A stretch of 64,000 nt of DNA from Chiloscyllium plagiosum (Eukaryota). The DNA is taken from assembly GCF_004010195.1 (NCBI RefSeq), contig NC_057725.1, forward strand, positions 20,362,553-20,426,552, given 5' to 3'. The notes under the pieces were generated by a model, which saw only the letters and a list, made by a program, of their open reading frames with translations, was not told the origin of the DNA and did not search any database. Shown piece by piece: positions 8,478 to 63,938 of the stretch. A program made the translations under genes and the position numbers. Position 1 is the first letter of the stretch; each line of letters opens with the position of its first letter.

Positions 8478-8833
8478 GGAGAAAGTGAGGTCTGCAGATG
8501 CTGGAGATCAGAGCTGAAAATGTGTTGCTGGAAAAGCGCAGCAGGTCAGGCAGCATCCAGGGAACAGGAGAATCGACGTTTCGGGCATAAGCCCTTCCTA
8601 ACCTGCAAGAAGATTGCAGGTTAGGAAGGCGGTGCTGAATTCGATGGATTTGACTGAGACAAGGTGGGGGGAGGGGAAATGAGGAAACTGGTGAAACCCG
8701 CGTTCCTGCCTTGTGGTTGGAGGGTTCCTAGGCAGAAGATGAGGCGCTCTTCCTCCAACCATCATTATGCCCGAAACATCGATTCTCCTGTTCCCTGGAT
8801 GCTGCCTGACCTGCTGCGCTTTTCCAGCAACAC
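8478..8833. mobile_element. Penelope-derived palindromic insertion (family A) with 14-bp TSD
   Basis: Inverted arms at about 8522-8590 and 8766-8833. TSD ACTATCTAAAGATA at 8464-8477 and 8834-8847. Confidence 0.85.
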
Positions 8834-8918
8834 ACTATCTAAAGATATCCAAGATAAGTGTATGGACTCCAGCATCTGCAGTCCTCACTTTCTCCTATGG
8901 ACTATATATGCAATACAC

Positions 8919-8924
8919 AATAAA
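8919..8924 (+). terminator. Candidate RAG2 polyadenylation signal
   Basis: First AATAAA seen downstream of the RAG2 stop codon. Confidence 0.5.
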
Positions 8925-9299
8925 TAGTGAGCCAAAAGTCAATTTCTGTCAGCATTATCTGGTCTACATGGTGAGGATTCTTTCTTGTTAACTGAAACAA
9001 TGTACATTTTCTTATTTAACAAAATGTCCAGTAGACTTGTCAAAAGATCTAACAATACCATCATGCTCTGCAATAGCAAAATACTGCAGATGCTGGAAAC
9101 CTAAGATAAGAAGTAAGCTGGAAATGCAGAAAACAGGACAGGCAGCATCTGGAGAGAGGGGTCAAAGATGTCTCATTCAGAACAAAAGTTCAGAAAGATA
9201 TAAACAAAATGTTCTGACAATAAGTCATTGGTCCACATTGCATGTCACTGTGTACCCATCCCAAAGATGTTGCCTCAACTGTTAGGTTTTCCCTGTATT

Positions 9300-9622
9300 A
9301 GAATCATAGAATCCTGACAGTGCAGAAAGAAGTCATTTAGCCCATCGAGTCTGCAGCAACCCTCCAAATAGCATCCCACCCAAGCTCTATCCCAACAACC
9401 CCACATTTCCCAGAGTTAATCCACCTGGCTTGCACGTCCCTGGACACCACAGGGCAATTTATCATGGCCAATCCACTGACCTGCATATCTTTGACCTGTG
9501 GGAGGAAACCAGAGCACCCAGCAGAAATGGGAAGAACATGCACACAGACAGTCATCCGAGGCTGGAATCAAACCCGGGTCCCTGAAAGCGAGAGACAGCA
9601 GTACTAACCACTGTGCCACTGT
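9300..9622 (-). mobile_element. HE1-like V-SINE
   Basis: Reverse complement of the SINE head, V domain and CR1-like tail. Confidence 0.8.
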
Positions 9623-10459
9623 ACTGCATATATTCTGGAGTGGATTATATGGGGGGGTGCAGATTCCATTCCCTTACCCCTCTAATACGTCCTGGGAAAT
9701 TTGGTAGGCATGACTTGGTAGACCCCAGTGTGGTGGGGAGGAGAGTTGAATCAGAGAGGCTGGAAAGGCCACCGAGTACCATCCCAAAGAAGGCGCCTCC
9801 TTCCTGCCTGATAGCAACACTGACTGAAAAAGATGCAGGCCTTCAACACTGGCAAGTGGCTGCAAAGTTCACCCTTGAATGTGTTTATTTCTCCTGGGTT
9901 ATAAATTTAGACTCTCAGCACACAATAAGGGCTGGTAGGACACATTTAAAATGCAATAAATGGTCTAAACAAGAGCTAATACTCAAATGGTGATGTGCCA
10001 GAACATGAGATTTGTTGCATAATCCTTTGCTACTTTGTAATTTTATGTCTAATTTTCTTTTTGGCGTTACTGTTCTGGATGTAACATTTGATGCAGTTAT
10101 AATTTTTGTTTGCAAACTTACTTCTGGTGCTGTGCTTAACAATTATTATTAATTTTACTTCTGTGGTGCTAACTCTTTACAGAAATAAAAATAATAATCA
10201 TAGTCTGGATGGTTTTCTTTAATTCAATACAATAATTAGCATTTGATGAAGAATCATCATGTAATAGGAACTTGTAAGAAAATGCAAAGAAATCATGATT
10301 TGCCAAACTAAGCACAAATAACCATCCCAAAATTCCCAAACTACTCTGCTTAGTCCTTGATAGTACCTGAAGATATTATTCTGACTTAAATGGTGGCTTC
10401 TTTCATCATTTCCATCTACAATAGTTGTTCCAGTTTACTGTTCTTTGCACCAGATTTAT

Positions 10460-10880
10460 GTCATAGAATCATACAGCATAGAAACAGACCTTTTTTCCAA
10501 CTCGTCCATGCCGACCAGGTATCCTAAACTGAACTAGTCCCATTTGCCTGTGTTTGACCTAAATCCCTCTAAACCTTTCCTATCCATGTACTTGTCCAAA
10601 TATCTTTTATATGTTATACTCGGCTCATCACTTCCTCTGGCAGCTTATTCCGCACATGCACCACCGTCTATGCGATAACTTACCCTCAGTGGCTTTTAAA
10701 TCTTTCCCCTCTCATCTTAAATCTATAACCTATAGTTCTGGATTCCTGTAGACTTGGAAAAAGATCTTGGTCATTCACCTTATCAACACCCCTTTAAAGT
10801 CACCCCTTAGCCTGTGATGCTTCGTGGGGAAAAAGTCATAGCCTATCCAGTCTCTCCTTATGACTCAAACCCTCTAGTCC
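10460..10880 (-). mobile_element. CR1 3' end fragment
   Basis: Similar to the CR1 tail at 853-1300. Confidence 0.75.
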
Positions 10881-11599
10881 TCTCTTCTCAGCCGATGTAC
10901 AACGTTGTGATTGTAACCTCACACAAGAACAAGGGCAACTGCAATAATTGCAATAACTATTACAACGATCACGGAAAAAGTATTTGTCTGTGTTGCCTTT
11001 GTCAGATTGCAAATTCTGACTGAATGCATCTGTCCTGAATTGAAGTGGGGTTTCAGAACTGGGAGATTTATGATTCCCTGGTTAGCATTGCCAGTCACAG
11101 TTGCTGATGGGATTCACATTCCTTTCCATCTAAAGCCACTCAGGCATTCCAAGAAACTCTGCTCCTCACATTTGAACAGGCACCTAATTCCATTCACCAT
11201 TCACCCCATGGTCCCCAATCTATGTTGACTCCCAATCCAGCCTTACCTCAATTTTAATTTTATCGCCATCATCTTCAAGTATTTCCATTGCTTTTGCCCT
11301 CTCAATTTCTGTCACCTTTCCCAGCCTCTGCTCTATCCCCAAAATCTATGTGCACCTCTAGTTCTGACCTCCTAACATGCCTGATACATCAACTTGTTTC
11401 TGCACCCCAGGTGCGACCTGACCTGCTGAATTTCTCTGCCATTTTTTACTTTAATTTCTGGTTGTAATTACACCAACTCGCCAGCTCTGCTTACTTTTCC
11501 AGAACCTGAGCCCTGAAATTCTCTCCTGAAACTCTTCGGCAAAGTTTTGATCACGGTTTTGACTCTTCCTTACATGGTTTGGTGACAACAGACTGAGAG

Positions 11600-62250: not shown

Positions 62251-62370
62251 CTCTACATAGCCAGAAAGTGGGAAGTCTTTGCGAAAAGGATGACCTTCAA
62301 ATCCATAATCTGTGAGGATTCGTCTGAGATCCGGATGGTCAGCAAAAAATACACCAAACAAATCCCAAAT
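62251..62370 (-). CDS. NDUFS3: NDUFS3 penultimate coding exon
   Basis: [40 protein letters not shown], the complex I 30 kDa subunit signature. AG/GT boundaries, 120 nt, phase 0. Confidence 0.98.
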
Positions 62371-62717
62371 CTGGAACAAACAGACAGGGTAACATCCTCG
62401 CTTCCTGAAGGACTTAACATTTTAAAATTTGATATTTCTAAGATTTACGTATAGTGCAAAATGTTACCTGTATTTTGTCTAAGACATTATAAAAGTGTGT
62501 TAAATTTGAAACAAATTCTTAAAAATACAATTGAGCCAAGACAGAAATGTTAGACAACTTATAACATACTCAGTTACATTTTAACACCCTACTTTTCGTG
62601 TGATTAGAGGCCATAAGCACAGCATAATAGTTTTAAATCACATTAGTTGCTCACCACATAATTAACTTTGGGAATTATAATACTGTAAACAATGATCAGT
62701 TCGAGATAAGCCCTTTA

Positions 62718-62751
62718 TTCCTGATGAAGGGCTTATGCCCGAAACATCGAC
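62718..62751 (+). ncRNA. Hammerhead motif (family A) in an NDUFS3 intron, antisense to the gene
   Basis: CTGATGA-A-GGGC(TTAT)GCCC-GAAAC-ATC. Confidence 0.6.
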
Positions 62752-63472
62752 TCTCCTGCTCCTCAGATGCTGCCTGACCTACACTTTTCCACAACAATCG
62801 GTGTTTGGCTATTCCATGAAAGTCCCATGTTCTTGATTTCAGCAAAGAAAAGATCATAAAGCATGAATGGAGAAAAGGTGATCTGGCTGATCAAACCTAC
62901 TCCTTCCCCAAACAATATACATCGACTCAATCTTGAACTTCACCACAGTTATTCACAAACCAATCTAAATAACAAAACATTTAGTCATCTACACAATTCA
63001 ACAGTGGCCTGATAGAATCTATCGACTATTATTTGCCCACCCCCACAACAGTCATCCTAGTTGCTACATCCTATTTCTGATGCTCAACGAACTGTAAGTC
63101 AACATTCTGATTAGAACTCTACCAGAATTCCACGTGTAACATAGCACATAACTTCGTCTTTCAAATGTTTCCTGTCTCAACAGTTCTTTGCAGCTTTTAC
63201 TTCTACCTCAAATTCTGCTCACAACCAGACAATGCCTACTCTTAAAAATGTGTTAATTTACAGAAGATAAATGTCTTCTGCTAAGAATTTGTAAGTTGGT
63301 GTAATTTCTCACCCCATCTATTTTACTACCTGCACACTTGGCCTACAATGTTAAATAGTCTCTTGCCCGTGATTCAATTATTTTTGGTTCTCTGACTCAA
63401 TCTTGTTTTGCTTAGAAATTGGCTGGTAATAAACGTCTTCTCATAACATTTCATCCAATTTATTCAACTCAC

Positions 63473-63598
63473 CTCTCTCTCATACCAGTTTGCAACCTGG
63501 AACACAGGTACCAGGGAATCCAGTGGTGTCAACTCATCAGTGTAAGTCTTCACACGGATACGAGAGTTAAATTGCAGCGAAAGCAGGTTATATACAAT
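63473..63598 (-). CDS. NDUFS3: NDUFS3 internal coding exon
   Basis: [42 protein letters not shown], bounded by ccaacag| and |gtgagt. 126 nt. Upstream exons lie beyond the window. Confidence 0.97.
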
Positions 63599-63744
63599 CT
63601 GTTGGAAAGTGAGAACAGAAGAGATCTTAAAATTAAATCTCAACATCTGCATGGGGTAATCCAAACCCCAATCAAATTGAAGTTCTTCCACAATTTATCC
63701 AATTCCCAATACTATGTTTTAAGTCAATACCTACTTTATAGCAA

Positions 63745-63938
63745 GGAGAAAGTGAGGGTTGCAGATGCTGGAGATCAGAGCTGAAAATGTGTTGCTGGAA
63801 AAGCGCAGCAGGTCAGGCAGCATCCAAGGAACAGGAGAATCGACGTTTCGGGCATAAGGGCTTATGCCCGAAACGTCGATTCTCCTGTTCCTTGGATGCT
63901 GCCTGACCTGCTGCGCTTTTCCAGCAACACATTTTCAG
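63745..63938. mobile_element. Young family A palindromic mini-element with 14-bp TSD
   Basis: Near-perfect inverted arms. TSD CTACTTTATAGCAA at 63731-63744 and 63939-63952. Confidence 0.9.

Follow-up and report, generated by a model that had tools for sequence, protein, structure and literature searches.

Seven short insertions in a 64,000-nucleotide stretch of contig NC_057725.1 of the shark Chiloscyllium plagiosum (the window; positions 20,362,553 to 20,426,552 of the forward strand of a 3.56-Gb genome) are stubs of two Penelope-like retrotransposon families, a known class, and represent no new mobile system. Each consists of two head-to-head copies of a Penelope-like terminus. In the reading preferred here, to which we assign a probability of about 0.7, every stub would be built in one landing from two short complementary DNAs (cDNAs) primed on both nicked target strands and extended until they run off the element's RNA at its predicted capped 5' end.

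Structure of the seven inverted insertions

Arm positions are counted from the predicted hammerhead cut (C17 = 0). A sequence-only reading of this DNA had described at least seven insertions, 150-530 bp long, each made of two inverted copies of a Penelope terminus, and all seven that it lists are present:

8478..8833, inverted stub of family A; tailed arm on the - strand reaching -22, untailed arm on the + strand from -15, about 170 bp of open reading frame (ORF) end/3' untranslated region (UTR) with a small hairpin filler between the arms; 14-bp duplication 8464-8477/8834-8847
23319..23467, inverted stub of family A (subfamily A2); inner ends at +1/+12 with a microhomology of 2 bp; 16-bp duplication with 1 mismatch, 23303-23318/23468-23483
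29494..29688, inverted stub of an older family A subfamily; untailed arm ending at -27 and tailed arm beginning at +6, separated by an 11-nt filler; 11-bp duplication 29483-29493/29689-29699
32128..32653, inverted insertion of family B; the untailed arm is long, reaching at least -267, and a 100-N assembly gap at the centre (32451-32550) separates it from the tailed arm; 13-bp duplication 32115-32127/32654-32666
41410..41570, inverted stub of family B; tailed arm decayed and ending at +16, untailed arm starting near -27, with a filler between them; duplication of 10 exact bases, or 16 bp with 2 mismatches when read by eye
56861..57068, family A inverted stub nested in a long family B copy; inner ends -19/-30, 2-nt filler; 13-bp duplication 56848-56860/57069-57081
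63745..63938, young family A inverted stub; arms complementary at 80/80 positions, inner ends -16/-21, 3-bp microhomology; 14-bp duplication 63731-63744/63939-63952

Two families are involved rather than one, with 8478, 23319, 29494, 56861 and 63745 belonging to family A and 32128 and 41410 to the unrelated family B. The upper size of 530 bp is uncertain, since a 100-N gap sits at the centre of 32128. A tail of about 35 nt is present on one arm and absent from the other in 7/7 insertions, which bears out the asymmetry of the arms noted earlier. Target-site duplications of 11-16 bp flank all seven sites, and not six as previously stated, the seventh (41410) being degenerate; among 300 random flank pairs none reaches a duplication score of 9. 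The arms had also been described as meeting at or near the hammerhead in most copies. Their inner ends do lie near the motif, but only one of the 12 mappable ends falls at the cut.

Elements of origin

A reverse transcriptase (RT) remnant of the window, used as a genome query, returned 66,867 preliminary candidates. Long family A copies encode an RT, a CxxC linker and a GIY-YIG domain, followed by the family A terminus, tailed or untailed. The ORF of locus L131 matches RVT_1 at E 6e-8 and GIY-YIG at E 3.5e-4, the latter just under Pfam's cut-off, and that of L138 is similar. Endonuclease-positive Penelope-like elements (PLEs) likewise have one ORF ahead of the terminus, in which an RT is followed by a C-terminal GIY-YIG domain, and the CxxC between RT and endonuclease in L131 and L138 may correspond to the Zn-finger-like motif of the Neptune clade. 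One unit stands both at the 3' end of long copies and ahead of the ORF (L331, L353), as expected of a pseudo-long terminal repeat (pLTR). This unit of about 130 nt combines an initiator-like motif, a minimal hammerhead motif and the tail. Several tailed family A copies run on into a common leader with an ATG at about +135, followed by the N-terminal part of the ORF; the leader was reached from the sequence flanking the tail, and a query with the N-terminal part of the ORF stopped short of the pLTR. The inverted trimmed copy, the optional tail at one end and the duplication are likewise those of PLEs.

A minimal type I hammerhead motif in the sense of PMC4209133, read from natural copies and of predicted activity, is present in both families. 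The motif displays the conserved CUGANGA core, the extra base before stem II, palindromic positions 15.2-16.2 and a short helix I, all shared with the hammerheads of metazoan pLTRs (PMC4209133), as well as G10.1-C11.1; helix I of subfamily A1 contains a U-U mismatch. The Penelope identity and the hammerhead motif proposed from the sequence alone hold. Rfam at the gathering score gave no match for the motif, cofolding of hammerhead units did not yield the dimer fold, a solved-structure search with the ORF gave no meaningful match, and a Pfam search with six short window remnants gave none. Geologically recent activity, in line with the earlier suggestion of recent activity, is supported by 4,571 and 995 exact sequence matches to the 80- and 70-nt termini, respectively.

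Upstream of its long ORF, L353 has a frame of 26 codons that begins with an ATG in the stem II loop; the ORF of PAc, the Poseidon element of the anole Anolis carolinensis (PMC11167929), begins at stem II. Loci L333-L360 hold short direct tandems of a hammerhead unit and 70-170 nt of leader, the nearest here to retrozyme-like or promoter-complete small elements.

One tail per pair and two proposed primings

The genome sample comprises 112 pieces of 10 kb each, taken from the first 41 contigs at round coordinates chosen arbitrarily (1.12 Mb, 30,203 N), to which further loci were added through pattern searches. The 1.12-Mb sample contains 290 arms and 85 inverted pairs, 52 of them with a duplication of at least 9 bp, and extrapolates to some 150,000-270,000 inverted pairs genome-wide. 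Inner ends were set through joint junction calling; alignment-only ends overshoot via the near-palindromic stem II.

The outer ends of the arms are bimodal, lying at about +97 (tailed) or +62 (untailed). Exactly one tail is found in 112/112 duplication-verified pairs, whose duplications are mostly 12-16 bp, and in 141/148 pairs when the duplication filter is lifted. The verified survey, which retains 112 of 170 pairs, includes bystander and protein-selected loci and is thereby enriched in long copies. Arm lengths co-vary in the 112 pairs, which comprise 99 short/short, 7 long/long, 4 short-tailed/long-untailed and no reverse combination, with 2 at gaps. In the anole element in vitro, two RT starts bound the tail and both strands are nicked and extended (PMC11167929). 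The tailed and the untailed arm of each pair match these two published start sites.

The bases past the tail follow the leader of the master element, with T in 106/140 cases, TC in 57/106, TCA in 28/57 and TCAA in 20/28, which indicates that the templates continued into the leader. This bears on a reading in which short solo units, transcribed from an internal promoter, are mobilised in trans in the manner of a short interspersed element (SINE), the palindrome being rebuilt at each landing. Solo units with duplications begin at the same inner edge as the pairs, internal Penelope promoters have been reported (PMC8557442), and rotifer solo pLTRs mobilise in trans (PMC3846280). However, the leader bases past the tailed ends occur far above chance, no common non-element 3' flank is seen once the leader, repeats of other kinds and single loci retrieved in overlapping pieces are set aside, and the anole enzyme requires RNA beyond the tail (PMC11167929). 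SINE-like mobilisation is improbable.

In the preferred mechanism, the target nicks would be staggered 12-16 bp apart, with one strand primed at the outer RT start and the other at the inner one, both on one 5' RNA unit. Run-off at the cap would add a C opposite the cap, the two cDNA ends would be trimmed and then end-joined head to head, and fill-in would yield the target duplication. Since both arms would copy the same stretch, the product would be a palindrome. Long arms on both sides would result where an internal unit is copied, whether it lies in a tandem, in a circle or at the landing point of a jump. The finished stubs are likely dead and unable to move again, as they hold no leader beyond +97.

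PMC3846280 proposes that the inverted arm arises by fold-back, with an antisense template priming itself; alternatively, the centres might be what remains of longer palindromes after deletions. Some junctions, as in 8478, contain small hairpins or fillers that are duplicated, which would fit such an origin. It is nevertheless very improbable: solo copies and direct tandems, which are not palindromes, display the same edge and the same G (see below), the overlaps and fillers of the arms range from +5 to below -20, and the one-tail rule fits two primings. The present data favour twin priming on sense RNA over self-priming.

Junctions probably formed at each landing

Junctions were surveyed in pairs with at least 88% identity, leaving out loci picked by junction or end patterns (76/260 pairs) and, for the counts, fillers longer than 40 nt. 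They consist of 0-5 bp of microhomology or short fillers and are locus-specific, 127 of 129 being distinct. [quoted passage not shown] One junction does recur, that of 63745 with its 3-bp microhomology, which occurs exactly 48 times in the genome, and sizes cluster near 200 bp. Among the 30 loci with this junction that were fetched, however, the tail lies on one side in 24 and on the other in 6, and the loci belong to several subfamilies with both arms varying together. The co-variation is general, as the arms agree in 618/665 comparisons at variable sites in 100 young pairs, against a mean agreement of 0.78 and a maximum of 0.81 for shuffled partners (500 permutations). Two polarities, several subfamilies and co-varying arms point to a palindrome formed on each landing with both arms drawn from one source. 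The outer ends are moreover variable, and the two arms lack the equal length of terminal inverted repeats. A MITE-like master copied as a whole, with a fixed, inherited junction, is largely refuted and retains next to no probability. The second alternative of the earlier reading, a stereotyped abortive insertion product, holds.

The inner edge and the predicted capped RNA start

The inversion points neither track the ribozyme cut nor are random: the ends are not piled at the cleavage site and display a sharp edge 31 (family A) or 36 (family B) nt upstream, marked by an extra G. Inner ends peak at -30/-31 in family A and at -35/-36 in family B, and 5,010 family A arms genome-wide stop at -31 with a non-template base. 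In contrast, 120 arms start at +1 behind a purine and 140 at the control position +5, although the three counts used different cores and their denominators are not exactly comparable.

If ribozyme cleavage determined the template's 5' end, arms would end at +1, as one window arm (23319) does, and +1 shows a weak excess. No family B end falls there (0/80), and stem II and the CUGA box, both 5' of the cut, are kept in most arms. The anole enzyme is active without ribozyme cleavage (PMC11167929). About 14 of the first 100 matches listed at +1 represent one microhomology join, and about half of the local +1 peak corresponds to mis-calls through CpG decay or poor references. Cleavage is refuted as the main rule and has a probability close to nil, while a minor cleaved class is possible. 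About six +1 arms, on contigs C12, C13, C20, C22 and C25, share nine upstream bases and may represent a re-amplified junction.

The extra base at the upstream edge is biased. Read by eye on the first 100 matches listed, the base before the stop is 55 G/22 A/23 T in family A and, in the first 100 of 846 matches, 86 G/6 A/8 T in family B, where about 27% G is expected. At +1 there is no G excess (43 G/57 A; Fisher p 2e-4 and 1e-14 against the A and B stops, respectively). Among cases unexplained by the partner arm or the duplication, G is found in 20/34 (A) and 16/18 (B), and a lone base between an arm and the duplication or partner is G in 7/9 (A) and 1/1 (B). Direct tandem junctions display the same edge: the downstream unit restarts at -28 to -36 in 14/15 and is joined to variable leader points, from +168 to +271, as expected if the enzyme jumps when its template runs out. 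In each family the edge coincides with the A of a motif resembling the initiator consensus. An extra 5' G is a mark of copying up to a cap. Initiator-like motif, extra G and template jumps in tandems together suggest that -31/-36 likely marks the start of the element's capped RNA.

The same twin-primed, abortive insertion could produce this edge otherwise, by stalling at the folded hammerhead or at a protein-protected or processed RNA end, with the G added by terminal-transferase activity. This version is rather unlikely. Position -31 is also the first base of the predicted helix I in family A, and the RNA start is not seen in the mapped reads; in family B, however, helix I begins at -31 whereas the G-marked edge lies at -36. 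The lack of a G excess at +1 and the position of both edges on the initiator-like A also speak against a stall, and a start site inside the pLTR has been reported for two PLEs (PMC8557442).

Several observations weigh against twin priming with run-off at a cap. At +1, eye reading of the first 100 matches listed leaves about 82 true truncations against about 44 at +5, and the excess is about 1.6-fold at most once point mutants are removed by eye; locally, 8/178 family A ends form a +1 peak. Long copies outnumber exact stops at the edge, with 14,561 arms running past -35 and the template still followed at -42 in 96/100 of the first matches listed (by eye), so that a second template class is required. 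At -31, 45/100 stops are not preceded by G, and among non-long copies the G is attributable to the partner arm or the duplication in 9/29 (A) and 9/25 (B). Inner ends scatter over -35 to -18 and beyond rather than lying solely at the edge. In the one run of single-cell polyA reads that was mapped, where thousands of copies are mixed, no pile of starts is seen at -31/-36. Finally, the link of family B to an RT ORF rests on a remnant of 24% identity (in 55775-58751), no full ORF having been recovered.

Relation to known systems and significance

Minus-strand strong-stop DNA of long terminal repeat retroelements is a short cDNA that runs off at the cap and is then transferred, and twin priming of long interspersed element 1 (LINE-1) gives inversions by priming from both nicks with microhomology joining. 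The shark stubs differ in being target-primed at two fixed internal sites, with both arms copying one stretch. In a broader strong-stop view, the enzyme would start on each of the target strands from two fixed positions close to the capped 5' end and meet the cap within 95-130 nt; most events would abort as palindromes, and long copies would need a tandem, a ribozyme-made circular template or a strand jump. We give this generalisation an even chance. If true, the shark genome would hold some 100,000 fossil intermediates that locate the start site with single-base precision, and the view would account for inverted pLTRs, tails and partial tandems as well as for the position of a hammerhead at the promoter.

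The layout itself, an inverted truncated pLTR with a tail at one end and a duplication, has already been described (PMC3846280, PMC8557442, PMC4209133); the cap run-off reading was not found in the literature searched. Endonuclease-positive Penelope-like insertions share the head-to-head truncated terminus, one-end tail, duplication and microhomology joins (PMC3846280, PMC8557442). Their tail is optional and 30-40 bp long and their duplications measure 8-10 bp, against 12-16 bp in the shark; in the stubs the ORF is usually absent, both arms span about 60-130 nt, the copy number is of the order of 100,000 and the inner edge is fixed and G-marked. How inverted and tandem ends form is stated as unresolved in PMC8557442, PMC3846280 and PMC11167929. 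PAc shares the two RT starts bounding the tail, the nicking and extension of both strands, and a hammerhead upstream of the starts whose cleavage is unneeded (PMC11167929), whereas the shark family has a Neptune-like CxxC linker and a long ORF starting after the tail. The sections of that article used here treat neither 5'-end run-off nor the origin of inverted products; its Fig. S2 maps genomic ends and may bear on novelty. In Schistosoma, dual hammerhead motifs lie 100-700 bp apart on opposite strands (PMC4209133); the corresponding parts of that article map no junctions. Non-LTR retrozymes are, like the stubs, non-coding, hammerhead-bearing and PLE-derived, but form head-to-tail tandems with a full motif per unit (bioRxiv 10.64898/2026.07.22.740005). 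In contrast, the stubs are head-to-head in all seven cases, with motifs on opposite strands that are often cut short, and a retrozyme identity is rejected. The literature search, with subscription journals, supplements, Dfam and Repbase outside its reach, turned up no article that treats run-off stubs at a cap or describes the two shark families.

The stubs preserve the copying cycle of Penelope elements as a fossil record resolved to single bases and provide predictions at the same resolution, namely the start site, the cap-derived G, one tail per pair and a shared template unit. Annotation should class them with truncated Penelope ends instead of entering them under MITEs or retrozymes. With 52-85 pairs in 1.1 Mb, they may also be an ample source of hairpin RNA within host transcripts.

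Other features of the window

Further Penelope-like pieces are:

8869..8895, +, family A insertion reduced to the tail, at a distance of 20 bp from the 8478 stub; 8-bp direct repeat 8861-8868/8896-8903
15583..16949, +, family A copy with RT remnant (79% identity to the ORF of L131), assembly gap, hammerhead motif and tail
27014..27109, +, untailed arm of family A standing alone; starts at -31 with G directly before
55775..58751, long form of the inverted layout, family B, untailed arm - and tailed arm +, nested insertions inside; 14-bp duplication 55761-55774/58752-58765
57490..57612, -, solo tailed family A arm; ends at about -25, no duplication found at its flanks

The untailed arm (-) of 55775-58751 holds a decayed Penelope-like RT remnant (weak match, 24% identity, E 5e-7), and this 3-kb version of the layout places the short form at one end of a range. 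Family A arms are inserted in family B termini at loci L176, L213 and L285.

RAG2 (6710-8338, +) and RAG1 (36628-39816, -) are convergent, intact-looking ORFs. The 8478 stub lies 140 bp past the RAG2 stop and may be located in the RAG2 3' UTR; contigs aligned over 7900-9300 revealed no empty site and, in the presumed-RNA runs, no coverage of the region 3' of RAG2. Repeated LINE-type RT fragments, presumably CR1-like by their motifs, occur at 851-2376, 45358-46844 and 51485-52975.

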